Positions 50-46,266 of a stretch of DNA of 64,000 nt are shown piece by piece (the first letter of the stretch is position 1; each line of letters opens with the position of its first letter). The position numbers were made by a program, and so were the translations under genes. The notes under the pieces are model-generated. The model saw nothing but the letters and a program-made list of their open reading frames with translations. It searched no databases and had not been told where the DNA came from. Source of the stretch: Spirosomataceae bacterium TFI 002 (GTDB lineage: Bacteria; Bacteroidota; Bacteroidia; Cytophagales; Spirosomataceae); contig LT907983.1 of NCBI GenBank assembly GCA_900230115.1, positions 4,198,774-4,262,773 of the forward strand, given 5' to 3'.

Positions 50-3000
50 GTGTGCTTAAGGCACTTAGTCTTTGGGATTTTTGTGTTTTTACTTTTTTCA
101 ATATCCACAATAGCTCAGAACCGTCAAATTGAATTGGTTACTAATGGTGACTTTAGTGATGGCAGAAACGGATTCTCTTCAGATTATAATTGGAATTCAT
201 CGAGCAATGGTGGCTATGACATCGATAATGACCCTAATGATGTAAACTCAAATTATTTTTCTTTTTATGATCATACCACTGGTACTAGTTCGGGAAGGCT
301 TATAGCGGCAAACGGCTCAACAAATGCAAACGACGATGTTTGGAAGAATAATATAAATGTAACAAGCGGTCAAACATACACTATGACCGTATGGATAAAA
401 TCAATATATGCTACCAATCCTTCCTCTATTGGATGGTTTGTTGGTGGAAATCAAGTCGGAACAACGGTGGTGGCTAATAATAATTGGCAACAACTAACAG
501 TTACCTATACAGCCAACTTTACTGGACTCGCAACATTTTCTATAAGAGCTACGAGTGGAGAGTCGTCGGGAAATGCTTTTGCACTTGATGATGTATCTAT
601 AACAAGTGAAGTATCACCCACCTGCTCTGGAACTTATTATGATACAGGAGGGAACAATAGCAATTATTCGAATAATGAGGACTATACCCAAACTTTTTGT
701 GCAGGTGCTGGATCAAATATTAGATTCAGTTTTAACCAGTTCAATGTTGAAACAAATTGGGACTTTTTAAGGATTTATGACGGGATGTCTACTTCTGCAA
801 ATAGTCTTGGAACGTTCACCGGAACTAATAGCCCCAATACAGTTACTTCTAGTACGGGGTGTTTAACTTTTAGATTTACTGCAGATAATATATATAATAG
901 AAGTGGATGGCGTGCTGCTATTTCTTGTGTGCCTGATCCTGGTTGTGGCAGTATTAGTTCAGTAGTCATAAATGATTTAAGTGGTGGAGCTGATATTGAT
1001 ATTACAGGAGGTGCAACTGTATATGCAGGCCAACTTCCTAATAACTGGAACATTGAAGCAACAAAAACGGTAGGGACTGGGAGTATTAGATTTGAAGTAA
1101 CAGGCGATAATGTTCAGTCAAATGTAGAAAATGCTGGTCCTTATAGAATGCCCAATGATAACGATCCGTTGAATTGGGGACCAGGAACTTATAACATAAA
1201 AATAACTCATTATAGTGGTAACTCGGGGACTGGTAATATTTGTGACGTAGAGCAGTTCACATTAATTATTGACCAATGTGCCATTAATAACTTTCAAGTA
1301 AGTTCGAATTCAACAGTATGTACTGGTGCAAACTTGAATTTAACATCATCGGGTGGTGGAACTGGTGCTACTTATAATTGGGTAGGACCTAACAGTTTTA
1401 CTTCAACTCAGCAAAACCCAACTCTTCCTAGTGTTGGTGCAGCCGCATCTGGAGTTTATTTTGCAACAGTCACTAATTCAGGTTGCTCAGCAACAGCGTC
1501 CACTTCGGTAAGTGTGACTAATGCTCCTTCTGTTTCAGTAACTAGTCAAAATGCCAATTGCGGATTAAATAATGGCGAAGTTACTTTCACTTTTCCTGAC
1601 GAATCAAGTAGAACAAATATAGAATTTAGTACCAATGGTGGTTCTTCTTATCCTACTTATGTAAGTGATGGAATTGGAAGTACAACTGTTACAAACCTAG
1701 GGCCTGGAACATACGATTTATGGACAAGGTGGGGAAACGATGAATGCCCTGTTGATTTGCCAGATGTTACCATTATAAGAGCCACAGGGACGTTGACCAA
1801 AACTGCCGATCCTACTGCTTGTTCGGGAGCGGCAACGCCACTTTCTGTTTCTTTACAAAATGCTGTTGGTTCTACCACTTATTCTTGGAGTAATGGTCTA
1901 GGGACAGGAGCAAATAAGACGGTTAGTCCCAATTCAAGTATTACATATTCTGTAACAGGAGTTGATAGTCAGGGTTGTGTTGGTACAGCCAATATCACAG
2001 TTAATGTAAATGCACTTCCAGTTGCCACTGCCACAGCTAATTCTCCGGTATGCTCAGGAGGAACAATAAACCTTAATTCTTCTGGAGGAAATTCTTATTC
2101 ATGGGTTGGTCCAAATTCTTTTAGTTCTGGATTTCAAAACCCCAATATTACCATTGCTTCAAATGTAAATGCTGGAACTTATACAGTCACAGTTACAGAT
2201 GCAAATAGCTGTTCATCTACTGCAGCGGTTAATGTTTTAATAAATTCTGGTCTTACAGTTACTGCTTCTACACCTGCAAGCAATATATGTGCAGGGACAG
2301 ACTTAAACTTATTTTCATCGGGAGCGACATCTTATTCTTGGAGTGGTCCTGGTGGTTTTTCTTCAAATAGCCAAAACCCTGTTATCACAAATGCAACAGT
2401 ATCAAGATCTGGAACTTATACCATTACAGGTAGTAATGCTCTAGGTTGCACAGCTTCGGCAACTACTTCCGTTGCAGTTACAATTAACTCACCCACAGCA
2501 AGTAATGACGGTCCGAAATGTGAAGGCAGTACAATTAACCTATCAGCAGTAGGCGGAAACGAATATGTTTGGAGTGGACCTAATGGTTTTACATCGAATA
2601 TTGCAAACCCATCAATATCAAATGCTAATCTTAGTCATGAAGGGATATATACAGTAACTGTTAGTATTTCGGGAGCATGTCCTGTAACTGCAACTACAGA
2701 ACTTAGCATGCATGCCTTGCCTAATATTTTGGTTTCTAATACAGGGCCAGTGTGCTCGGGAGGTAATATCACTTTGAATGCAAGTGGTGGAACTTCATAC
2801 GTTTGGAGTGGACCAAATGGATTTAGTTCTTCAAATCAAAATCCAAGTATTTTTAATGTAAATAATTCAAAGACAGGTTCATATACAGTTACAGTTACGA
2901 ATGCTTCAGGCTGTACTGCTACCGCTACCACCGTAGTGGGATTGTCGTTTCCGAGTTTGACAGTATCTAGCGATACAGTTTTATGTGCAGGTGGAACAAT

Positions 3001-6000
3001 TAACTTACATGCAACTGGTGCTGTATCTTATGCTTGGACAGGGCCTAACTCGTTTTATGCAGCAGCGGCATCAGTTAGTATTCCAAGTGCAAGTTCATCA
3101 GAAAATGGAACATATACAGTTACAGTTAGTAATTCGCTAGGGTGTTCTGCTACGGCAAGTGTGGATGTTAGTATTTTAAATGTTGCTACGCCTATTGTTT
3201 CTAATGCTCCTGTATGTACCGGAGATTCTCTAAAAATGGAATTACCTGGCTGGACTACTTATTCATGGTCGGGTCCAGCTGCATTTAGTGCTGCGGTTGA
3301 AGATCCTTTTATTGCAAACCCAACAACAAGTAATAGTGGAGTTTACAGTGTTACTGCGTCTATTGCTGGTTGCACAACCACAGTTACTGCAAACCTAACT
3401 GTCCGGGCATTGCCCATTCCAACAGCGAGTAGTAATCAGCCAGTATGTGTAGGCACAACGCTTAATTTAACTAGTGCCTCGGCATCTAGTTATTCGTGGA
3501 AAGGGCCCAATGGTTTTACTTCATCTGTTAGGAATCCTAATATTGCTGTTACTGATACTTTGCCACAAGGGACCTACACACTCGTTGTTAGCAATTCATT
3601 TGGATGTTTAGACTCTACAACTCACGATGTCGATGTATCTTTTGTAGTTCCTACAGTGAAACCTTCGGGAAGGGCTTGTTTAAGTGCTTCATATCCGTTG
3701 ACAGCGGGTGGCGGAGCTTCATATTACTGGACTGGGCCAAATTCATTTAGCTCAGGAAATCAAAATCCATCCATTTCTAATATCAGCTTAGCGAAACAAG
3801 GTGTTTATTCTGTTACCATTACCAATGCAGATGGTTGTACAGCTTCGGTTACAACTAGTTTAACGGTTTCTATTCCTGTTGCCACAGCTTCCAGTAGTTC
3901 ACCAGTATGTGAGGACGATATTTTAGTTTTAACTTCTTCTGGCGGAGCTTCATATGATTGGAGTGGACCGCGTTCTTTTGCTTCTAATATTCAAAACCCG
4001 AATATCAGTATTGTAAAACAAAATCAACAAGGAGTTTATACCGTTACGGTTACCGACTCAGTAGGTTGTGTAGCAACTGCCACTACAGATGTGGTTATTA
4101 ATAAAAACACCAACGGTAGAATAAATGACAATGGACCTATTTGTGAGGGACAAAATCTTGAATTAGATGGTAGGGGAGGAGACGTGTATTATTGGTCAGG
4201 GCCTAATGGTTTTTTATCTTCATTAGAAGATCCAATTATTAATAGTGCGTCTGCTGCTGCAAATGGAACTTATACTTTACAAGTTACGGACTCGAATGGC
4301 TGCTCAGCAACTGTAACATCTAATATCACTGTTTATCCTAGTCCAATCGCCAATCCTACAGCTACAATTGCAGATATCTGCGTTGGGCAGACCTTAAATT
4401 TACTTTCCACCGTAAATGATCAATATAGTTGGTCGGGACCTAATAACTTTAACTCAAATCAACAAAATCCTATTCGCACAAATGCGACAACCAACATGTC
4501 GGGTGTATACACCCTGACTGTAACTGATATTCCAGAAAATTGTTCAGCTTCGGCTAGTGTAGCTATTTCGATTAATACCATTCCACCGCCTCCGGTCAGT
4601 CCAGCAGTATCTCGATGCGGCACAGGAACTGTTACACTAACGGCCTCTGGCTGTTCTGGTGTTTACCAGTGGTATGATACCAACTCTAGTTCTACTGTGT
4701 TAGGAACAGGAAGTAGTTTTACAACACCTTCTCTGAGTTCAGGTCGATCTTATTATGTAAACTGTACAGAATTTACGTGTCCAAGTAGTACACGAAGACA
4801 GGTTCAAATTACCATTTTAGCAAATCCTACAGCTACTGCAACTGTAACTCAAAGGCATTGTGTAGGTTCAACTGCGAAGTTTACTGGTGGTGGAAATAAT
4901 GTGAGTTCATATGCGTGGTCTGGTCCTTTAAGCTGGACAAGCAACGAACAATCTCCAACAAAATTGATAAATGGAACAAATAATGGCGGAACTTATACCA
5001 TTACAACAACAAGGTCAAATGGTTGTACTGCAACAGCGACAACAAACCTTCAAGTAATTACAAATTGTGATAACATTTGCGGAAGCCAGTATGTCATTAT
5101 TCCTACCAACCCACTTTCATGTGGATCAACCAATGGACAAGTTTATATTTCTGCTACTAACAGTTATGAGACAAGTTTGGATGGAGTAAATTGGACTCGT
5201 GGCTCTGTTACCTACAATAATCTAGGAGTTGGTAATTATTACTTTTATGTAAAAGATTACGCAACTCAAAACATTTGTAAGAATGTAAGTAATACATTGG
5301 TTTCAACTACTTCGAGTTATTTTACGGGACAATCAGTAACTGCTGCAAGTGATTGTTATTCAGCAAATGGTTCAATTACACTTCAAGGAGTACAGCCAAC
5401 AGATGATGTAAGCTGGCTTGCAACCTTGAAAGCTCCAAAAGTTCCTGTTTCTAGTTTAAGTCCTTCAAACACCATAAGTAACTTAACCCCAGGGAAATAT
5501 TATGTGAAAGTTTCTCGTGCAAATGATTTCTGTTATGCAGAGAGATATGTGGATGTTCCTAACAATGGTACTTCGTGTACTAGTAATACCTTCTGTGATG
5601 ATAGTACTGTGCCAAATCTTTTTCCAAATGGAGATTTTGGGTCTGGAGCAAATGAAAATGGTCCTGTTTTAATAGAAACTCAATATGGGTATTCTAATTA
5701 TACTTGTTATGCTCCATGGGATGGTTTTTACTCCATAACTAATAATACAGATTGTGATGGAAATGGAGGAAGAGCATTCTCAAATCAAGCAGTTGGTTCA
5801 TGGGATGTGTTAACAGAAGATCATACTGTGGGAGATGTCAACGGGTATATGATGGTTATAAATGCCGGTTATACACCTAATATAGTTGTTGAGAAACTTA
5901 TTGGTGATTTATGTCCCAATACGCAATATAACTTTACAGCATGGATGAGGAACATTTCTCCTGCCTCAACCATACAGCCAGATGCAGCATTTATCATAGA

Positions 6001-9000
6001 TGGGGTAATTAAAGCGACATCAGGGGCTGTAACAGGAAACCAATGGAAACAGGTGGGATTCTCCTTCAAGACTGGAGAAAACACTACAGAGGCTCTTTTT
6101 GCATTGAGAAACATTGCACCAGGAGGATTTGGTAATAACTGGATTCTTGATGACGTTAAAGTGAGCAAGTGCCCACTAGAAATAAATTTGAGTGGAACTA
6201 CAATCGCCTGTTTAGGCGGTAATAGTGAAGAAATAGAAGCAACTATCAACGACCCATATGAAGAATACACTTATTTCAAATGGGAAAAAAGTGATGATAA
6301 TGGAGCGACATGGCAAAATGTTACAACGGTAGCACAAGGGAGTTATGTTTCTGGGAACATGAATGTAGACCTAACGCTTCCAACTCCAATAGTTTCAGCA
6401 TTGAGTGGCAGAATTTATAGAATTAGATTGGCTACCACAGCAGCGACTATTGATGATCCACAATGTTCGGTATATAGTGCTCTTACACAAATTATTGTTC
6501 CTCCTATTGAACTGAATGTGACTCTTCCAATTGAAAAATGTATTGGTTCGGGTAGTGTTGCACTTACAGCAACTGCGAGTGGAGGTACAGCTCCTTACTC
6601 TTATTTATGGAGGAATTCAGTGGGTAATACACCAACAGTAAATGTAAATCCAAGTGCTACAACTACTTATGTTGTAGAAGCCTTTGACGCTGACAATTGT
6701 CCAGCAATTGATTCTGTTATAGTAACAGTCAAAGATCAGCCAACACTCACTGTTACTATAGAAGAAGATTCTGTTTGTTTAAACGGGACAACTCATATTA
6801 TAGCTCATGTAGAAGGCGGTTCAGGTAATTTTCAGTTTACATGGTACGAGTCTGCAGATGGTTCAACCAACTGGACTACGATAGCAGGCGTAACAGATTC
6901 GGTATATTCTCCTAATACCTCAGTAGCAGGACAAAAATACTTTAGAGTCTTTGTAGAAGATTTAACATTCGATTGTAATGATGCTACTTCAAATCCAGTA
7001 TTGTTTACGGTAGTCCCACTGCCATCGGTTAACATAAACCTAAGTGCATCTCCAGTATGTATTGGCGGAGCAGTAAACCTGACTGCTAATGTGACCTCAG
7101 GAGCAGGAGCTATTGAATACCAATGGTATAGGTCAACGAATAATACAACATTCAATGCCCTAGCTGATGATACACTTGGAACCTATTCGCCCAATACTGG
7201 AACAGCAGGAACGACTTATTATGAAGTAGAAGCAGTGGCATCCGCATCAGGATGTACAGCGGCACGCTCTTCAAGTGTAGCGGTACAAGTGCTTCCTAAT
7301 TTCGATGTAGATTTGCTAGTAAATAATGCAGTAGTGTGTATTGGAGGCTCAGCGATATTAACCGCAGATACGATAAGTGGAACAGGCAATATAACTTACC
7401 AATGGTTTAACTCTTCCGATGGTGTGAACTTCTCATCTATAACAGGAAGTACATCAACATTAACAGCCCCAACAGGCACAACGGGAATAACTTACTACCA
7501 AGTACAAGCAACTGCCTCAGGAGCAGGTTGTGGTTCTGCAACATCAACACCAACATCAGTAGAAGTATTACCAGTATTTGATGTAGATGTAACAGTAAAT
7601 AACTCACCAATTTGTATTGGAGGAAGTGTAACGTTAACCGCAGATACTTCCAATGGATTAGGCTCAGTGAGCTACCAATGGTTCGGTTCATTGGATAATG
7701 TAACGTTTAACCTTATTGGAGGCGAAACCAATTTATCCTATAATCCATCCACGACGAATTCAGGAACGACATATTACCGAGTAGAAGCAACAGCCTCAGG
7801 TTCAGGTTGCGGAACAGCAGTATCGGATGTAGTACCAGTCGTAGTATTACCAGTATTCTCAGTAGATGTAAATCCAAGTTCGAGTGTAGTGTGTGTGGGA
7901 GGAACAGTAAGCTTAGATGCAGATACAACGAATGGAACAGGAACAGTAACCTATCAGTGGCAACAGTCGACCAACAATGTAACCTTTAGCAACATAGCTG
8001 GAGCTACAGGAGAAACCTATAACCCATCAACTGCAACAGCAGGAACATTGTATTATAGAGTAAGAGCGACAGCAAGTGGCTCAGGTTGTGGCACAGTAAC
8101 CTCGGCAGGAGTATCAGTAGAAGTACTTCCAGTGTTTGAAGTATCAGTAACACCAAGCAATACTACTTTATGTTTGAATGGTTCATCAGTGATTACAGCC
8201 ACAACAGTAAGTGGAACAGGAACAATTACATACCAATGGTTTAACTCTACAGATAATACGACATTTAGCCCAATATCAGGAGCAACAGGAGCAACAACAA
8301 CAGCACCAACGACTGCGGTAGGAACGACCTATTATAGAATAGTAGCAAATGCCAGCGGAAATGGTTGTGGGAATGCAACTTCAGCAAGTGCGGTAGTGAG
8401 AGTATTACCAGTATTTGATGTAGAAGTAAGTTTAAATAATGCCGTAGTATGTATAGGAGGAAATGTAACACTTACAGCCGATACGGTAAATGGAACAGGA
8501 ACAGTTACATATCAATGGCTAGAGTCCACAGACAATGTTAGCTATACAGCGATATCAGGAGCCACTGGCGTTACTTATACAGCCAATACAGCTTCAGAAG
8601 GCCTAAAATATTATAGAGTTCAAGCAACAGCCTCAGGTTCAGGATGTGGCACAGTAGAGTCAGATGAAGTATCAGTAGAAGTATTACCTGTATTTTCGGT
8701 AGCAGTAAATCCAAGTTCAAGCACAGTATGTGTGGGAGGAGCAGTCACACTAGATGCAGATCCAACGAATGGAACAGGAACCATAACTTACCAATGGCAA
8801 GAGTCAACTAATAATTCAAGCTTTACCAATATCAGTGGAGCAACGAACGAAATATATACCCCATCAACAAGTGCAGAAGGAACAACATACTACAGGGTCA
8901 TTGCCTCAGCAACAGGAGCAGGTTGTGGAAGTGTAACATCAGGAAGTTCCATGGTACGAGTACTGCCAGTCTTTGATGTAGACATTGCGATCGATAATGC

Positions 9001-11938
9001 AGTGCTATGTTTAGGAGGAAGTGCAGTCATCACCGCCGATACAAGCAGTGGAAGTGGAACAGTAAGCTATCAGTGGTATAATTCAACAAACAATAGCACA
9101 TTTACAGCAATCTCAGGAGCAACAGGGGATTCCATCATAGTACCAACGAACGCAGAAGGAACTATTTACTACCGAGTAGTAGCAACAGCCAGCGGCGTAG
9201 GTTGCGGAAATGCTACCTCAGCAAGCGGAAGTGTAGAAGTATTACCAGTATTCGATGTAGATATTTCGGTTACTAACTCAATCGTATGTATTGGCGGGGC
9301 AGTAAACTTAGGAGCCTCACCAGTAAACGGAACAGGGACGATCACTTATCAATGGTTGGAGTCACCTGACAATAGCACATTTACAGCAATCTCAGGAGCA
9401 ACAAATGTTAACTATGTACCCAATACTGCAACAGCAGGAACAAAATATTATCAAGTACAAGCGACAGCCTCAGGATCAGGATGTGGAACAGTAGAGTCAG
9501 ACGTCGCAACGGTAAGAGTATTGCCGATTTTCTCAGTAGATGTAAACCCTAGCTCAAGTGTGGTGTGTCTAGGAGGAGCAGTAACGCTAGATGCAGATAC
9601 AACAAACGGAACCGGAACAGTAACTTATCAATGGCAAGAGTCAACTAATAATTCAAGCTTTACCAATATCAGTGGAGCAACGAACGAAACATATACCCCA
9701 TCCACAGCTACATTAGGAACAAGGTATTACAGAGTCATTGCCACAGCAACGGGAGCAGGATGTGGGAGTGTAACATCAGGAAGTGTATCAGTAGAAGTAC
9801 TACCAGTTTTCGATGTAGCTATCGTAGTTGATAATGCGATAGTTTGTTTGAATGGAGCAGTGACGCTCACCGCCGATACGATCAGTGGATCTGGTAATGT
9901 AACTTACCAATGGTACAACTCATCAGACGGAAGCACATTTGCGGCCATATCTGGAGCAACAAGCAAAACATTAACAGCACCCACATCAAGCCTAGGAGTG
10001 ATGCATTATCAAATCATGGCCAATGCCTCAGGAGCAGGTTGTGGAGATGCAACTTCAGCCTCAAGTACAGTAACGGTAGAGCCACAATTGATTGTAGAGC
10101 TAGATCAAACATCAGCAGAAATCTGTTTGAATGAATCACTGACATTGCAGAGTACAACGAGCCATGGAGTAGGAACCATTACTTACCAATGGCAAAGTTC
10201 ACCAGATGGATCAACATGGACCAATATTGTAGGTCAAACAAATGACAACCTATCAGTAAGTACCAGCACAGCAGGATTATTTTACTACCGAGTATTAGCC
10301 TTTGCAAGTGGAGTTGGTTGTAATGATGCCACAGCAGTACCTACGATAGTACGCATACATGATTATCCAACAGTAACGAGAACATTTGTATCTCCACTTT
10401 GTGAGCCCACAAACGGAACGATCACATTTACATTTAGCGATGAGCCAGCAATTGACTCCATTCAATTTAGCTTGGACAATGGCTTAACATATCCATATAC
10501 CACCAATGACGGAGCAGGAACGTATACTATTAATGGCTTAGGAGAAAATGTGTACGAACTAAGTGCCCAATACAAAGGAGGTTTATGTCCAGTGTCGATG
10601 ACGAATGTGACGATGGAAGAAAGGCCAGCACCAAGCGTGACTACCACTTATGTAGACCCCACTTGTACGACTGATAATGGTACGATCACATTTACATTCC
10701 CAGATGAGTCCACAAGAACTGATATCAAGTTCAGTAGAGATGGCGGAACGACTTATGCAAGTAATATCGCAGACAACTCAGGTTCATATACGATGAATGG
10801 AGTAGCACCAGGAATTTATAATTTATTCGCCATATGGGGGAATGATGAATGTCCAACAGACCTAGGCAGTGTAACCCTCACAGATCACCCAACACCAATA
10901 ATCACAGTATCAGCAGATACCGTATTGTGTGAAGGACAATCTTACACAATTTCAGTTTCAAGCACTGGAGGAGATAATCCAATAACCTATACTTGGGACA
11001 ATGGCCTTGGCAATGCATTGAGTCATACAGTAAGTCCATTGGTAGATACCTATTATGTGGTTTCGGTTGTGGATTCTAATAATTGTACTGTAAGCGACAC
11101 CGTTTTTGTTGAAGTCAATCCAGTACCAGTAGTAACAGCAACAGGAGGAACATTCTGTGAATTCGATACATTAGAATTAAGCTCAACAGGCGTAGGGATA
11201 TTTGAGTGGACGGGTCCAAATACATTTACAAGTTCAGATCAAAATCCACAAATAGCGAACGGACAGCTCACAGATGCAGGAATTTACACAGTAGTATTAA
11301 CCAATAATTTCTCTTGCCAAAGTACAGCCACAGCAGAGCTTATTGTAAATGATACCCCACCATCCCCATCAGTTGTGGAGGGCGAAAGATGTGGTCCTGG
11401 AGTTGTAAATCTTTCAGCAACTGGCTGTAATGGAAATATTGAATGGTACGATAGCCAATTTTCTTATTCATCGGTATCCTCTGGCACAAACTTTGCATCA
11501 TCAAATCTAGATGAAAGTAAATATTTCTTTGTGAATTGTACAACTACCTTGAATTGCGAAAGTATTGAAAGAGTGCCAGTATTGGCAAAGGTAAATGAGT
11601 TATCAGTAGCTCAGCTTTTACCAATTAACTCTACTTGTTTTGGAAATATAGCCATAAACAACGGTCAACTAATCGCAACTAGGTTTGAGGATGGCGAAAC
11701 ATTCTCATTCAGTGAAGGAAGTACCTACAATAGCAGTACGGCAACAAGTTTGGCAACCATACCAGCAAATGGCCTACTCTCACAAAGTATAAATAACCCA
11801 ACAACGCTCACGCAATCATACACAGTAAGAGTGAATAGTGTAGATGGCTGCCCAAGAGATATCGTTGTGGAATACCAAGAGTCTTGTGAAGAGTGTAAAC
11901 CTTATTGCGAACCTTCATCAATTGAACGAGTAAAATAG
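50..11938 (+). CDS. Giant secreted cell-surface adhesin-like protein (3962 aa). Architecture: signal peptide, CBM4_9/galactose-binding-like domain, CUB domain, about 14 short SprB-type repeats, a second CBM-like domain, about 13 Ig-like ~93-aa repeats, a Cys-rich C-terminal domain shared with the next gene
   Basis: Uninterrupted 11.9-kb ORF. N-terminus MCLRHLVFGIFVFLLFSISTIAQ looks like a signal peptide (GTG start at 50). There is no in-frame stop between position 2 and 50, so the true start may lie upstream of the window. Recurrent motif CxGxxLNLxSSGGxxYxWxGPNxFxSxxQNPxIxNxxxxxxGxYTVTVTxxxGCxxTA fits SprB-type repeats. A CUB-like segment (CSGTYYDTGGNNSNYSNNEDY...LRIYDG...) is present. NGDF...DDV segments look like CBM4_9. 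Confidence 0.85.
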   Translation: MCLRHLVFGIFVFLLFSISTIAQNRQIELVTNGDFSDGRNGFSSDYNWNSSSNGGYDIDNDPNDVNSNYFSFYDHTTGTSSGRLIAANGSTNANDDVWKNNINVTSGQTYTMTVWIKSIYATNPSSIGWFVGGNQVGTTVVANNNWQQLTVTYTANFTGLATFSIRATSGESSGNAFALDDVSITSEVSPTCSGTYYDTGGNNSNYSNNEDYTQTFCAGAGSNIRFSFNQFNVETNWDFLRIYDGMSTSANSLGTFTGTNSPNTVTSSTGCLTFRFTADNIYNRSGWRAAISCVPDPGCGSISSVVINDLSGGADIDITGGATVYAGQLPNNWNIEATKTVGTGSIRFEVTGDNVQSNVENAGPYRMPNDNDPLNWGPGTYNIKITHYSGNSGTGNICDVEQFTLIIDQCAINNFQVSSNSTVCTGANLNLTSSGGGTGATYNWVGPNSFTSTQQNPTLPSVGAAASGVYFATVTNSGCSATASTSVSVTNAPSVSVTSQNANCGLNNGEVTFTFPDESSRTNIEFSTNGGSSYPTYVSDGIGSTTVTNLGPGTYDLWTRWGNDECPVDLPDVTIIRATGTLTKTADPTACSGAATPLSVSLQNAVGSTTYSWSNGLGTGANKTVSPNSSITYSVTGVDSQGCVGTANITVNVNALPVATATANSPVCSGGTINLNSSGGNSYSWVGPNSFSSGFQNPNITIASNVNAGTYTVTVTDANSCSSTAAVNVLINSGLTVTASTPASNICAGTDLNLFSSGATSYSWSGPGGFSSNSQNPVITNATVSRSGTYTITGSNALGCTASATTSVAVTINSPTASNDGPKCEGSTINLSAVGGNEYVWSGPNGFTSNIANPSISNANLSHEGIYTVTVSISGACPVTATTELSMHALPNILVSNTGPVCSGGNITLNASGGTSYVWSGPNGFSSSNQNPSIFNVNNSKTGSYTVTVTNASGCTATATTVVGLSFPSLTVSSDTVLCAGGTINLHATGAVSYAWTGPNSFYAAAASVSIPSASSSENGTYTVTVSNSLGCSATASVDVSILNVATPIVSNAPVCTGDSLKMELPGWTTYSWSGPAAFSAAVEDPFIANPTTSNSGVYSVTASIAGCTTTVTANLTVRALPIPTASSNQPVCVGTTLNLTSASASSYSWKGPNGFTSSVRNPNIAVTDTLPQGTYTLVVSNSFGCLDSTTHDVDVSFVVPTVKPSGRACLSASYPLTAGGGASYYWTGPNSFSSGNQNPSISNISLAKQGVYSVTITNADGCTASVTTSLTVSIPVATASSSSPVCEDDILVLTSSGGASYDWSGPRSFASNIQNPNISIVKQNQQGVYTVTVTDSVGCVATATTDVVINKNTNGRINDNGPICEGQNLELDGRGGDVYYWSGPNGFLSSLEDPIINSASAAANGTYTLQVTDSNGCSATVTSNITVYPSPIANPTATIADICVGQTLNLLSTVNDQYSWSGPNNFNSNQQNPIRTNATTNMSGVYTLTVTDIPENCSASASVAISINTIPPPPVSPAVSRCGTGTVTLTASGCSGVYQWYDTNSSSTVLGTGSSFTTPSLSSGRSYYVNCTEFTCPSSTRRQVQITILANPTATATVTQRHCVGSTAKFTGGGNNVSSYAWSGPLSWTSNEQSPTKLINGTNNGGTYTITTTRSNGCTATATTNLQVITNCDNICGSQYVIIPTNPLSCGSTNGQVYISATNSYETSLDGVNWTRGSVTYNNLGVGNYYFYVKDYATQNICKNVSNTLVSTTSSYFTGQSVTAASDCYSANGSITLQGVQPTDDVSWLATLKAPKVPVSSLSPSNTISNLTPGKYYVKVSRANDFCYAERYVDVPNNGTSCTSNTFCDDSTVPNLFPNGDFGSGANENGPVLIETQYGYSNYTCYAPWDGFYSITNNTDCDGNGGRAFSNQAVGSWDVLTEDHTVGDVNGYMMVINAGYTPNIVVEKLIGDLCPNTQYNFTAWMRNISPASTIQPDAAFIIDGVIKATSGAVTGNQWKQVGFSFKTGENTTEALFALRNIAPGGFGNNWILDDVKVSKCPLEINLSGTTIACLGGNSEEIEATINDPYEEYTYFKWEKSDDNGATWQNVTTVAQGSYVSGNMNVDLTLPTPIVSALSGRIYRIRLATTAATIDDPQCSVYSALTQIIVPPIELNVTLPIEKCIGSGSVALTATASGGTAPYSYLWRNSVGNTPTVNVNPSATTTYVVEAFDADNCPAIDSVIVTVKDQPTLTVTIEEDSVCLNGTTHIIAHVEGGSGNFQFTWYESADGSTNWTTIAGVTDSVYSPNTSVAGQKYFRVFVEDLTFDCNDATSNPVLFTVVPLPSVNINLSASPVCIGGAVNLTANVTSGAGAIEYQWYRSTNNTTFNALADDTLGTYSPNTGTAGTTYYEVEAVASASGCTAARSSSVAVQVLPNFDVDLLVNNAVVCIGGSAILTADTISGTGNITYQWFNSSDGVNFSSITGSTSTLTAPTGTTGITYYQVQATASGAGCGSATSTPTSVEVLPVFDVDVTVNNSPICIGGSVTLTADTSNGLGSVSYQWFGSLDNVTFNLIGGETNLSYNPSTTNSGTTYYRVEATASGSGCGTAVSDVVPVVVLPVFSVDVNPSSSVVCVGGTVSLDADTTNGTGTVTYQWQQSTNNVTFSNIAGATGETYNPSTATAGTLYYRVRATASGSGCGTVTSAGVSVEVLPVFEVSVTPSNTTLCLNGSSVITATTVSGTGTITYQWFNSTDNTTFSPISGATGATTTAPTTAVGTTYYRIVANASGNGCGNATSASAVVRVLPVFDVEVSLNNAVVCIGGNVTLTADTVNGTGTVTYQWLESTDNVSYTAISGATGVTYTANTASEGLKYYRVQATASGSGCGTVESDEVSVEVLPVFSVAVNPSSSTVCVGGAVTLDADPTNGTGTITYQWQESTNNSSFTNISGATNEIYTPSTSAEGTTYYRVIASATGAGCGSVTSGSSMVRVLPVFDVDIAIDNAVLCLGGSAVITADTSSGSGTVSYQWYNSTNNSTFTAISGATGDSIIVPTNAEGTIYYRVVATASGVGCGNATSASGSVEVLPVFDVDISVTNSIVCIGGAVNLGASPVNGTGTITYQWLESPDNSTFTAISGATNVNYVPNTATAGTKYYQVQATASGSGCGTVESDVATVRVLPIFSVDVNPSSSVVCLGGAVTLDADTTNGTGTVTYQWQESTNNSSFTNISGATNETYTPSTATLGTRYYRVIATATGAGCGSVTSGSVSVEVLPVFDVAIVVDNAIVCLNGAVTLTADTISGSGNVTYQWYNSSDGSTFAAISGATSKTLTAPTSSLGVMHYQIMANASGAGCGDATSASSTVTVEPQLIVELDQTSAEICLNESLTLQSTTSHGVGTITYQWQSSPDGSTWTNIVGQTNDNLSVSTSTAGLFYYRVLAFASGVGCNDATAVPTIVRIHDYPTVTRTFVSPLCEPTNGTITFTFSDEPAIDSIQFSLDNGLTYPYTTNDGAGTYTINGLGENVYELSAQYKGGLCPVSMTNVTMEERPAPSVTTTYVDPTCTTDNGTITFTFPDESTRTDIKFSRDGGTTYASNIADNSGSYTMNGVAPGIYNLFAIWGNDECPTDLGSVTLTDHPTPIITVSADTVLCEGQSYTISVSSTGGDNPITYTWDNGLGNALSHTVSPLVDTYYVVSVVDSNNCTVSDTVFVEVNPVPVVTATGGTFCEFDTLELSSTGVGIFEWTGPNTFTSSDQNPQIANGQLTDAGIYTVVLTNNFSCQSTATAELIVNDTPPSPSVVEGERCGPGVVNLSATGCNGNIEWYDSQFSYSSVSSGTNFASSNLDESKYFFVNCTTTLNCESIERVPVLAKVNELSVAQLLPINSTCFGNIAINNGQLIATRFEDGETFSFSEGSTYNSSTATSLATIPANGLLSQSINNPTTLTQSYTVRVNSVDGCPRDIVVEYQESCEECKPYCEPSSIERVK
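620..950 (+). other. CUB-like domain within the giant protein
   Basis: CSGTYYDTGGNNSNYSNNEDYTQTFCAGAGSNIRFSFNQFNVETNWDFLRIYDGMSTSANSLGTFTG...LTFRFTADNIYNRSGWRAAISC matches the CUB consensus (C..Y......Y.n...C......i.l.F..f..E...D.l.iyDG). Confidence 0.5.
1300..4600 (+). repeat. Array of about 14 tandem short (70-75 aa) SprB-type/Ig-like coding repeats
   Basis: Repeated units such as CTGANLNLTSSGGGTGATYNWVGPNSFTSTQQNP...GVYFATVTNSGCSATAST, CSGGTINLNSSGGNSYSWVGPNSFSSGFQNPNITIASNVNAGTYTVTVTDANSCSSTAAV and others occur at 210-230 nt spacing. Confidence 0.8.
6500..10110 (+). repeat. Array of about 13 tandem Ig-like ~93-aa (~279-nt) coding repeats. A three-copy ~837-nt super-repeat spans 7567-10080
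   Basis: Units begin LPVFDVD/LPVFSVDVNP/LPVFEVSV and contain VCIGG..TLTADT.NGTGT.TYQW...YYRV.ATASGSGCG. Unit starts are at 7567, 7846, 8125, 8405, 8683, 8963, 9241, 9521, 9800 and 10080. Units 3-4-5, 6-7-8 and 9-10-11 correspond one-to-one. For example, nt 8797-8865 and 9636-9704 are near-identical (caatggcaagagtcaactaataattcaagctttaccaatatcagtggagcaacgaacgaaa.atatacccca). Confidence 0.85.
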
Positions 11939-43415: not shown

Positions 43416-43763
43416 TTAACAATTTCTACAGTGTTTAATATTTAAGATGTGCCCCAGCACCAAAACTAGGCTTGCGAAGTAGCTTAGGAGTTCAGCAAAC
43501 TCGAAAGTATCTTCTAGTATTATACAAAAGCTAAGTATTGCAAAACCTATCCAAACTAGTAGAAAGATATGGCGAGGAGGTTTAGACTTAGTTGCCTCCC
43601 AAGCTGCTGTAAAACTGACCAGTAAAAACAAATAACTAAGGTTTGCCCACCATTCGTATTTTATAACTAAGACAATCAAAAAAGGAGTCAATATGCAATG
43701 TACCACGCAGAGCGTGGCACTTGCAATTCCCAAATAATTGGAAAAATTGAAGAGATTTTTCAT
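43416..43763 (-). CDS. MerC-domain-like small membrane protein
   Basis: LGIASATLCVVHCILTPFLIVL resembles the MerC N-terminal Cys motif. Four TM helices. C-terminus HCRNC. Confidence 0.5.
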   Translation of the reverse strand: MKNLFNFSNYLGIASATLCVVHCILTPFLIVLVIKYEWWANLSYLFLLVSFTAAWEATKSKPPRHIFLLVWIGFAILSFCIILEDTFEFAELLSYFASLVLVLGHILNIKHCRNC

Positions 43764-43773
43764 ACTGTTAAAC

Positions 43774-44988
43774 TTAATGTATTTCGTTGCTTTCGTATCC
43801 CAATACCGTAATGCTATAAGGTCTATTTGAAACCTTAATTCGCTGTTGTATTGAAGGGTTCTTAATATTCACCATTAATACTTCACCAATTTTCGGTTGA
43901 GTGATGTACGCAAATTTACCGGATACAACCATTTGAGGTTTTTGTGTCTCATCTTTAGCCGTAGCGGCCAATAAAGCGGGATTTGATTTAATTATACCTC
44001 CTGTAAAAATATCTTTGTAAACCATGTCGCCCGAGTGGGATAGGATGGCAATGCGACTATAATCCATGCTTACTTTGGCTTGCATGATATCATTACTTTC
44101 GTGAATAGGTTTAATTTCATTTGTCGTGGTATTGATCAAATAAACTCCCTTTGAGGCTGTGTAGCCAAGAAAATTACCTTGTTTAGATGTTTCCATGATA
44201 GTCCCAAACCACGTTGTGCCAAAATCAGAAGGGTGCGGTATGAACTTTTGATTTCCGTTTTCTTCTACTACCAAAATACCACTAGCAGAGCCGAATACCG
44301 CTGAGTTACCGTCGGTTGCGTTACCGTGAATACCTTCAGTGGCTAATTTTGACTCGTGGATAGTTTTACCGCTTGAGTCGATGATTTTAACTCTTTCGGG
44401 TAGCGTGCCGGGTATACTATTGTCTTTCTCGGTGACAGCATAAGTGCCATTCATAAAATGAGCCATTGCACCATGATGTGCTTTAAGGTTGGCGTTTATT
44501 ACCTGCATTTTTATATCTGGAACGTGTATTTCACTTTCTTTTCCTATAGAAAGTGTACCGTCACCGTCATTGAATGTCAGGATTTCGCCTCTCTTACTTT
44601 TAAAATGGGTTGGTTTAGATGATTGCCCTTCCAATGCTCCAAACTTGGGTGTTCCTTTTACATCAACATGATCGCCATGATTTTCAAGGCCGATATCAAA
44701 GGTTTGCATCATGTCGTTGTCACGGTGGACAATTCCTGCAAATCGACTTGATTCTGTGGTGTAAAGTGCCGATTTTGGATACTGTGCTTGAAAACTTAAA
44801 ACTTCTTTAGAGAAAGGGTTCACAAGTGAAATGTCATTAGTTACTTCATCTGATACTAAAATTCGGATGTGTCGAAACTCTGCATTAGGGTCTTCTTCAG
44901 GATTAACATCTACCGAATTGTTTTCGCATGATGTGATTACAAATAAGGCTGAGGCAGCCAAGGCCAATGGTAAAATTCTTTTAAACAT
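43774..44988 (-). CDS. Hypothetical lipoprotein (possibly a beta-propeller)
   Basis: Lipobox ITSC followed by ENNSV. Gly/Asp-rich repeated strands. Confidence 0.5.
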   Translation of the reverse strand: MFKRILPLALAASALFVITSCENNSVDVNPEEDPNAEFRHIRILVSDEVTNDISLVNPFSKEVLSFQAQYPKSALYTTESSRFAGIVHRDNDMMQTFDIGLENHGDHVDVKGTPKFGALEGQSSKPTHFKSKRGEILTFNDGDGTLSIGKESEIHVPDIKMQVINANLKAHHGAMAHFMNGTYAVTEKDNSIPGTLPERVKIIDSSGKTIHESKLATEGIHGNATDGNSAVFGSASGILVVEENGNQKFIPHPSDFGTTWFGTIMETSKQGNFLGYTASKGVYLINTTTNEIKPIHESNDIMQAKVSMDYSRIAILSHSGDMVYKDIFTGGIIKSNPALLAATAKDETQKPQMVVSGKFAYITQPKIGEVLMVNIKNPSIQQRIKVSNRPYSITVLGYESNEIH

Positions 44989-45009
44989 ATTTATACTTTG
45001 TTTTGTAAA

Positions 45010-45064
45010 TGCAACAATGTTGCAAATATAAAATCAAATAAATCCTAAATGCAACAATGTTGCA
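45010..45064. promoter_or_regulatory. Two copies of the perfect 15-bp palindrome TGCAACAATGTTGCA (putative operator pair) in a divergent promoter region
   Basis: Copies at 45010-45024 and 45050-45064, 40 bp centre to centre. A third half-site-like ggttgcaaaaag lies at 45078-45089. Confidence 0.6.
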
Positions 45065-45351
45065 TAAATAAGTTTTGGGTTGCAAAAAGTTAGGTAATCC
45101 CTACTATGAGGAATTCCATTTTGACAGGGATAAATAATACTTAACTCACTTCCTTTTTCTTAAACCCAGAGTTAATATTACCAGAATAAGTAGAAAAGCG
45201 ATGTTCAAACGATTAGATTATTGATTACTATTTGAAGATACGACAGTGATTTTTGATACTTAAAGAAGTGGATCTGTCTCGCTTAAAAGTTTTTAAATAC
45301 TCGGTTTTGAACGATTATTGTTCTAAATTTCGTCTTAATTCAACCCATTCA

Positions 45352-46266
45352 ATGACTTCACGAAGAACATTTATCAAGCAATCTAGCTTAGGACTGGCTG
45401 CTTTAACTTTTCCATTTTCTAAAACCAAGTCTGTTGCTCCGCTTTGTTATTTTACAAAAGAAATGCAGTGGGCAAGTTATGATGAGGTAGGAATGATGCT
45501 GAACGAACTTGGTTTTGATGGGGCAGACTTATCCCTTAGAAAAAGAGGTAGCATAGAGCCTGAAAATGCAGCTAAAGAATTACCAAAATTCGTTTCAGCA
45601 CTTAATCGCCATGGTATAAGTGTGCCTATGATGGCAAGCGATATTGGAGGCGTAGGTTATCCAAATATTGAGGAATTCTTGAAGATTATCAGCGACAATG
45701 GGATCAAGTATTACCGCATGGCATACCTCAAGTATGATTTCAAAAAGTCTATAGAAGCAAATATTGAAATTTTCCATGCTGGCTTTCAAAAACTAGCAGC
45801 CTTGAATGCCAAATATGGTCTTGCAGCATCTTACCAAAATCATGCTGGCACTAGCCTAGGAGCGAGTGTATGGGATGTGGTTTATTCATTGAAAGGTATA
45901 GATAAAAAGCAAGTAGGGGCACAGTTCGATATCAGGCATGCAGTGGTAGAAGGAGGAGAATCTTGGCCTGTGGATTTTGCAGCCATAAAGTCCCATATCA
46001 ATACCATAGTAACAAAAGATTTTTATTGGGCAAAGAACGAAGCAGGTAAATGGAAAGTGAAAAATGTGCCTCTGGGAGAAGGAATGGTTGATTTTGATGC
46101 CTATTTCAAACTATACAAAGAAGCAGGTTTGGATGTTCCTATGACAAACCATACTGAATACCCAATTTTCAATGAAGAGCAAGAACACCTTTCGAATAAG
46201 GAGAAAATGAAGATTATTCTTCCAGTTATCAGGAAAGACCTTAATGTAATAAAGAAATACTTGTGA
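45352..46266 (+). CDS. Sugar phosphate isomerase/epimerase (xylose-isomerase-like TIM barrel) with a Tat signal
   Basis: MTSRRTFIKQSSLGLAALTF twin-arginine signal. Acidic and His residues typical of a TIM barrel. Confidence 0.65.
   Translation: MTSRRTFIKQSSLGLAALTFPFSKTKSVAPLCYFTKEMQWASYDEVGMMLNELGFDGADLSLRKRGSIEPENAAKELPKFVSALNRHGISVPMMASDIGGVGYPNIEEFLKIISDNGIKYYRMAYLKYDFKKSIEANIEIFHAGFQKLAALNAKYGLAASYQNHAGTSLGASVWDVVYSLKGIDKKQVGAQFDIRHAVVEGGESWPVDFAAIKSHINTIVTKDFYWAKNEAGKWKVKNVPLGEGMVDFDAYFKLYKEAGLDVPMTNHTEYPIFNEEQEHLSNKEKMKIILPVIRKDLNVIKKYL

Follow-up and report, generated by a model that had tools for sequence, protein, structure and literature searches.

A probable Zur-type operator pair in the promoter of an aztD-like/merC-like operon of a Spirosomataceae bacterium

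Two copies of a 15-bp palindrome upstream of a lipoprotein gene are probably operators of a zinc-sensing Fur-family repressor (Zur), as judged from sequence comparison, and would act on the sigma-A-type promoter of an operon that encodes an AztD-like lipoprotein and a MerC-like membrane protein. The boxes themselves, their conservation and position, and the zinc-related and Fur-family genes that lie beside such boxes are observed directly.

Palindromic box pair

The 15-mer TGCAACAATGTTGCA is present as two exact copies at positions 45010–45024 and 45050–45064 of the window (the whole 64,000-nucleotide stretch of DNA that was analysed), with a start-to-start distance of 40 bp. The 15-mer consists of a 7-nt inverted repeat arranged about one central base (7-1-7; TGCAACA-A-TGTTGCA), and each box lies within a 19-nt direct repeat, TAAATGCAACAATGTTGCA. 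An earlier note on this DNA had described a pair of perfect 15-bp palindromes, and its coordinates and 40-bp distance are exact; the palindrome is perfect apart from the unpaired centre. The proximal box is located 21 nt from the start codon of the lipoprotein gene (44988, minus strand). The boxes and the genes of the putatively controlled unit are as follows.

45010..45024, minus strand: proximal Zur-type box, TGCAACATTGTTGCA on the gene strand; exact match, with a same-position box in 22 orthologous promoters
45050..45064, minus strand: distal Zur-type box; exact match, with a second box kept 38–40 bp (27 bp in three loci) upstream in orthologues
45079..45084, no strand assigned: lone half-site GTTGCA; single hexamer, probably not functional
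43774..44988, minus strand: first gene of the controlled unit, AztD-family lipoprotein of 404 aa; zinc metallochaperone-like beta-propeller, locus tag SAMN06298216_3475
43416..43763, minus strand: second gene, MerC-like membrane protein of 115 aa with a C-x-x-H-C motif; starts 10 nt downstream of the lipoprotein gene

The two copies are the only matches to TGCAACAATGTTGCA in the window (G+C content of 38%) when up to one mismatch is allowed. In 100 dinucleotide-preserving shuffles of the window, searched at the same mismatch level, the mean number of matches was 0.01 and no shuffle contained two, which agrees with the earlier statement that a twice-occurring 15-mer is unlikely by chance. At the three-mismatch level, five matches were seen against 5.6 expected, and the three extra ones are thus at chance level. 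A third, partial site had been proposed at 45078–45089. This site is reduced to the single GTTGCA hexamer, whose offset misfits the 38–40 bp spacing and which lacks conservation across aligned orthologous promoters.

AztD-like lipoprotein and MerC-like protein

The window lipoprotein is 100% identical to SAMN06298216_3475, which is annotated as a hypothetical protein. The 404-aa sequence has no match in Pfam, and its score on the NCBIfam AztD model (NF038015) is 99 bits, below the membership cut-off of 400. The lipoprotein is classed here as a distant AztD relative and not as an equivalog. In the PDB, the closest match is Citrobacter koseri AztD (E = 6e-16), with the zinc ligands aligned. AztD coordinates zinc through His124, His167 and His218 at site 1 and through His99, His102, Asp104 and the C-terminal His at site 2 (PMC6689063). 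All seven ligands have equivalents in the lipoprotein, namely H128, H172 and H221 (site 1) and H104, H107, D109 and H404 (site 2). Among 28 homologues, H104, H107, H128, H171, H172 and H221 are invariant, D109 is found in 90% or more, and the C-terminal His is retained in most, not all. In the AF2 model of the lipoprotein (pLDDT of 89), the predicted fold is that of the AztD beta-propeller: the best nine PDB fold matches are all AztD structures (TM of 0.76–0.87), and propellers other than AztD reach query-normalised TM values of 0.59 or less. Because AztD of Paracoccus belongs to a Zur-controlled operon (PMC6689063), a zinc repressor was taken as the working hypothesis for the boxes.

The 115-aa product of the second gene matches the Pfam MerC family (PF03203) with an E-value of 1.6e-15 and 58.1 bits, above the gathering threshold of 27.6. 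Residues C19, H22, C23, P27, H105 and N108 are invariant in the MerC-like protein. Membership of Pfam MerC does not imply a mercury function, and a mer operon is absent. No aztABC-type transporter gene is found beside the AztD-like genes, whose immediate neighbours are MerC-like, TonB-receptor and lipoprotein genes.

Conservation of the box pair before orthologues

Orthologues were collected by an alignment-based search of metagenome contigs, which yielded 80 loci; a single-protein query against the same contigs returned no orthologues. Boxes were called in the orthologous promoters at two mismatches or fewer. The orthologue heads its transcription unit and has upstream sequence in 22 metagenomic loci, and in 20 of them the box pair is located at about −30/−45 and −70/−85 from the start codon. 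The two closest relatives by protein, from a Jiulongibacter sp. (68% identity) and a Spirosomataceae MAG (77%), each have two boxes 40 bp apart, which brings the number of orthologues preceded by the box pair to 22, in Cytophagia-like genomes. This conservation favours the earlier assignment of the boxes as putative dimeric-repressor operators of the lipoprotein/MerC-like pair.

In the Spirosomataceae MAG, the box pair heads an operon of aztD-like, MerC, COG0523 and TonB-receptor genes. The facing divergent operon contains genes for a TonB receptor, a DUF4198 protein (a faint Pfam match in one of two copies) and HmuY. The gonococcal periplasmic zinc-capture protein Zcp belongs to DUF4198 (PMC12663993).

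Flavobacterial-type loci are arranged differently: the orthologue takes the last or last-but-one place in an operon whose other products are a small protein rich in His, a TonB-dependent receptor and small lipoproteins (one or two). A box lies approximately 3.4–3.7 kb upstream of the orthologue, before the first operon gene, in L003, L006, L007, L020 and L076–L080; the fetched DNA does not reach back to the start of the operon in most of the remaining loci of this type.

Further details were observed at individual orthologous loci. The operons at L003:470-5200, L006:384-5188 and L020:553-5623 encode a 115-aa protein (HSYEH, no family match), a TonB-dependent receptor of ∼795 aa, a ∼200-aa lipoprotein and the AztD-like protein, and a MerC-like gene is sometimes present in these operons. 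L020 also has a Fur-family gene (129 aa) on the other side of the box, in divergent orientation. The aztD-like frame of the Spirosomataceae MAG (L202:4001-5220) was called as two genes (314 and 83 aa), which points to a frameshift or an assembly error. The two-gene split recurs in many contigs, and 63 blocks of the collection have an index entry for the protein.

Promoter anatomy and box spacing

On the gene strand, the region reads ...TTATTTA-TGCAACATTGTTGCA-TTTAGGATTTATTTGATTTTATATT-TGCAACATTGTTGCA-TTTACAAAACAAAGTATAAAT-ATG, and the following promoter features are predicted within it.

45023..45030, minus strand: putative −7 promoter element TATATTTG; match to the Bacteroidota sigma-A consensus TAnnTTTG, its final TG being the first TG of the proximal box
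45018, minus strand: predicted transcription start, 5 nt past the G of the −7 box, with a 5′ leader of ∼30 nt; derived from the −12 to −5 placement (PMC9723704)
45052..45055, minus strand: GTTG in the 3′ half of the distal box, the candidate −33 element; lies 21 nt upstream of the −7 box

TATATTTG is the sole TAnnTTTG sequence on either strand of the 363-bp intergenic region and, together with the C that follows, also matches TANNTTTGY, another form of the Bacteroidota −7 consensus (PMC12632263). Since the TAnnTTTG element occupies −12 to −5 (PMC9723704), transcription is predicted to start near 45018, and the proximal box would cover about −6 to +9 of the promoter. The fusion recurs: TA[T/C][A/T]TT directly precedes the proximal box, joined to its TG, in 23 of 23 aztD-like promoters, and the flank of the distal box is only T-rich. 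In promoters of Bacteroides and Flavobacterium, the −33 TTTG is located 19–21 nt from the −7 box. The TTG of the distal box was placed as the candidate −33 element because its 21-nt distance from the −7 element fits this rule, and the distal box is thereby predicted to overlie the −33 position. A scan with the sigma-70 consensus, which is uninformative for Bacteroidota, gave 6 sites against 6.4 expected.

The distance between the two boxes in orthologues is 40 bp at 11 loci, 39 bp at three, 38 bp at five and 27 bp at three. Spacings of 40, 39 and 38 bp leave gaps of 21, 20 and 19 nt, respectively, between the TTG of the distal box and the −7 box. In the three 27-bp loci, a TTTG is found just upstream of the distal box, which then occupies the spacer. 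The earlier note had read the 40-bp distance as four helical turns, a spacing that would place two dimers on one face of the DNA for cooperative binding. Such an arrangement is compatible with Zur binding: some Zur proteins bind as dimers of dimers, as E. coli Zur does (PDB 4mtd), and 38–41 bp is the commonest spacing of paired boxes at other target genes among the matches listed. Nevertheless, cooperative phasing is a rather unlikely reason for the spacing, as orthologues keep no fixed number of turns (3.6–3.8 turns for 38–40 bp and 2.6 turns for 27 bp, at 10.5 bp per turn) and the phase is lost. Promoter geometry appears to explain the 38–40 bp spacing better, because, with the −7 box fused to the proximal box, this distance equals a spacer of 19–21 nt between −33 and −7.

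The earlier suggestion that the element may also control the divergent gene at 45352, which encodes a Tat-exported isomerase, does not fit the promoter layout. This TIM-barrel gene with a Tat signal starts 288 bp from the distal box, and the spacer contains no TAnnTTTG on its strand. Moreover, the neighbour on the divergent side is an unrelated gene in all relatives examined, the closest ones included.

Box in other genomes and its flanking genes

A scan for TGCAACANTGTTGCA covered 185,579 species genomes, one per species, and at least 120 exact matches were listed; ORF calling around the matches was crude. Among the 120 matches listed, 60 are titled Bacteroidota, and at least two further Bacteroidota-type contigs (L105 and L115) are contained in mis-binned MAGs. 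The sites are outside long ORFs in 50 of the 60 listed Bacteroidota matches versus 38 of the 60 listed elsewhere. In addition, 46 of the 60 listed Bacteroidota sites are single boxes. The pattern search proposed earlier thus recovered a candidate regulon across other genomes, not in the source genome.

Pfam families were tallied for 57 genes, namely those with a start no more than 300 bp from a listed Bacteroidota site. MerC-like and Fur-family genes tie as the commonest neighbours in this tally (seven each), followed by SCO1/SenC (four) and by CobW/COG0523, TonB receptors, ABC ATPases and thioredoxin-reductase-like flavoproteins (three each). For one box-flanking COG0523 protein, the score on the ZigA zinc-chaperone model is 567 bits (cut-off of 600). 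At the intergenic sites listed outside Bacteroidota, the 38 flanking genes include FUR (four), ZrgA (three), ZnuA (one) and TonB receptors (three, at least one of them on a mis-binned Bacteroidota contig). Because FUR, ZrgA and ZnuA genes flank the box there, the TGCAACAATGTTGCA-type 15-mer is read as serving as a zinc-regulon box in some non-Bacteroidota lineages as well.

Several of these contigs appear to be misfiled. L105 (T9SS sorting domain) and L115 (CarboxypepD_reg-type TonB receptor) are filed as Asaia bogorensis and Cyanobium MAGs and are probably binning contaminants. A Bifidobacterium breve contig (L117) with a Bacteroidota-style lipoprotein signal is probably another.

The earlier note had advised looking for the cognate regulator next to other copies, and Fur-family genes do directly adjoin the box elsewhere, at distances of 14–140 nt, in seven Bacteroidota loci and four loci of other phyla among the matches listed. 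The box-linked Fur-like proteins share a DR[VT]T[IF]YR recognition helix, an HxHF motif and two CxxC motifs. Their closest solved relatives are, weakly, M. tuberculosis FurB/Zur and E. coli Zur. The window contains no Fur-family gene by tblastn with eight box-linked Fur-like proteins (nothing below E = 0.1).

Assignment to a zinc-sensing repressor

The 7-1-7 layout is a Fur-family operator type, as in the Fur, Zur and PerR boxes of B. subtilis. The box pair combines this repeat architecture with a placement over the core promoter (at a predicted start), a zinc-gene regulon and linkage to Fur-family genes, the last two features being judged on other genomes. The boxes are assigned as probable Zur-type operators because architecture, position and regulon content all match. 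The metal-specific families beside the boxes mark zinc throughout: COG0523/ZigA, ZnuA, ZrgA, DUF4198 (faint) and AztD with intact zinc sites. The SCO1/SenC, thioredoxin-reductase-like and MerC families, which are classically tied to copper, redox or mercury and not to zinc, are also among the box-flanking families and count against the zinc reading.

The boxes could instead bind a Fur paralogue that does not sense zinc (an iron Fur, a manganese Mur, a peroxide-sensing PerR or a copper-linked sensor), in which case the operon would handle that stimulus. The Fur-like neighbours leave room for this, as their scores on the NCBIfam Zur, Fur and PerR models are similar and all far below the cut-offs, and PDB comparison is likewise non-discriminating. 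TonB receptors and HmuY, together with the SCO1/SenC and thioredoxin-reductase-like genes, are the flanking genes that would suit such a sensor. The zinc character of the metal-specific families makes this alternative improbable, and iron-only genes (siderophore synthesis, ferritin) are absent from the tally of 57 genes near the matches listed.

A dimeric repressor of another family encoded elsewhere in the genome (e.g. ArsR/SmtB, MerR or TetR) is less probable still. A palindrome by itself does not identify the protein that binds it, and no regulator gene adjoins the boxes in the window. However, an adjacent Fur-family gene at seven plus four loci is far more than chance would give when a genome has only a few genes of the family, the families listed in the tally include no further regulators, and the 7-1-7 geometry is of the Fur-family type.

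Attenuation or termination of transcription by an RNA hairpin of 15 bp, formed between the two copies, is scarcely credible: the region does fold better than shuffles (z = −3.8), but a favourable fold is trivial for two copies of a palindrome, the −7 box at 45030–45023 predicts that the distal copy is untranscribed, the proximal box of orthologues is often TGCATCA... while the distal box stays TGCAACA..., which breaks the pairing with no compensation, and the sites listed in Bacteroidota are mostly single. Rfam has no match near threshold; its scan of the spacer returned chance-level matches to rox2 and mir-33 only. An invertible promoter or recombination site was rejected, as the copies are separated by 25 bp only and single boxes are the rule elsewhere, and a MITE or repeat remnant was rejected, as the motif is found at orthologous promoter positions in diverged genomes with otherwise unrelated flanks.

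For the favoured assignment, repression by Zur, the following mechanism is proposed. When zinc is sufficient, zinc-loaded Zur dimers would bind both boxes and exclude RNA polymerase from the promoter by occluding the −33 position (distal box) and the −7/+1 region (proximal box, whose first two bases are the final TG of TATATT-TG). When zinc is scarce, Zur would lose its regulatory zinc and release the DNA, and the operon would be transcribed. We infer Zur as the binding protein in the source genome, repression as the outcome, zinc as the signal and the position of the start site. More tentatively, the AztD-like lipoprotein, at the surface or in the periplasm, might pass zinc to the MerC-like protein, which could act as an inner-membrane importer that replaces AztABC/ZnuABC within an undescribed Bacteroidota Zur regulon with the box TGCAACA-N-TGTTGCA. 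The motifs behind this possible importer role are the invariant C-x-x-H-C and H-x-x-N.

Comparison with known systems

The Zur box of B. subtilis is TCGTAAT-N-ATTACGA, and that of gammaproteobacteria is GAAATGTTATANTATAACATTTC. The boxes described here resemble such Fur-family 7-1-7 Zur boxes in that a 15-bp repeat with A/T-rich flanks lies over the core promoter of zinc-acquisition genes, often in two copies. As with known Zur boxes, the motif is also found, in other genomes, before the regulator's own gene and before COG0523, ZnuA and TonB-receptor genes. The boxes differ from those of B. subtilis and gammaproteobacteria in the half-site, TGCAACA, and in that the first TG doubles as the end of TAnnTTTG.

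The controlled operon is comparable to the Zur-regulated aztABCD operon of Paracoccus denitrificans (PMC6689063, PMC5387054), since a propeller with the AztD fold and both zinc sites stands behind a putative Zur-type operator in each case. Unlike in P. denitrificans, the neighbouring genes do not encode an AztABC or cluster A-I ABC transporter; the partner is MerC-like here, and TonB-dependent receptors and small lipoproteins are the partners in flavobacterial relatives. The protein is also a lipoprotein, in contrast to P. denitrificans AztD, and its 99 bits on the NCBI AztD model are far below the cut-off of 400.

An operator merged with the promoter element has a precedent in AusR of Zobellia galactanivorans, in which the operator is merged with TAnnTTTG and repressor and sigma-A vie for the same bases (PMC7641319). 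In both systems the operator motif overlaps the Bacteroidota −7 box. AusR belongs to the GntR/FadR family and responds to an alginate signal, whereas the boxes here point to the Fur family and zinc.

In the searchable literature, curated regulon databases aside, no Zur operator or regulon, no TGCAACA-type consensus and no link between MerC and zinc was found for Bacteroidota. The switch itself seems to be of an ordinary metal-repressor type; there seems to be no earlier description of its operator sequence for Bacteroidota. How members of this phylum acquire zinc and regulate its acquisition is poorly charted, and the 15-mer offers a ready probe. Among the matches listed, it already connects regulators of the Fur family with GTPases of the ZigA type, TonB receptors, AztD-like lipoproteins and, surprisingly often, MerC-like proteins. 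The last are among the candidates that can be tested as the inner-membrane zinc importer that is missing in these bacteria. Of the loose ends, the recurrent MerC-like partner is the most interesting; if it were such an importer, zinc uptake would become a physiological role of the ‘mercury’ MerC fold. A compact, zinc-repressible promoter with its operator fused to the −7 box is also predicted to be of use as a genetic tool in Cytophagia and Flavobacteriia.

Minor observations

In Chitinophagaceae, the box is located between divergent MerC-like and SCO1/SenC-like genes at L109:650-1809, L110:1283-2549, L111:1231-2540 and L182:7233-7951. The arrangement suggests that a thioredoxin-fold ‘copper chaperone’ homologue (SCO1/SenC-like) is part of the box regulon. 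In Niabella, Arcicella and Chitinophaga (approximately L132:4474-5373, L146:6934-7845 and L188:5273-6175), a thioredoxin-reductase-like flavoprotein of ∼300 aa starts at a distance of 38–45 nt from an exact box, with a TIGR01292 score of 93 bits, far below the cut-off. The Bacteroidota flanking set also includes one match to LCIB_C_CA (limiting-CO2-inducible beta-carbonic-anhydrase-like, 1.9e-50) and one to DUF1826. These two genes may encode zinc-sparing or zinc-dependent enzyme paralogues in the regulon.

The box carries ATG on both strands (AATGCAAC/AATGTTGCA), and spurious ORFs (MQQCC..., MLQ... or ending within the box) are therefore easily called across the operators, as at 44831–45031 (plus strand) in the window and at L082:336, L142:1890, L191:3371 and L197:4883. 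Elsewhere in the window, a single ORF of 3,962 aa at 50–11938 (plus strand) fills the first 12 kb.

Some exact Bacteroidota boxes form the centre of longer perfect palindromes, with up to 18 extra bp per side (51 bp in total), as at L173:3397-3447, L160:3337-3385, L197:4856-4894, L082:327-361, L183, L187 and L122:7314-7344. At least five extra complementary base pairs are found at nine of 62 sites versus 0.7 expected from re-paired flanks. The flanks are unconserved between genomes, and the window boxes are without such an extension. It is possible that the long palindromes do double duty as terminator hairpins or that they originated by palindromic duplication.
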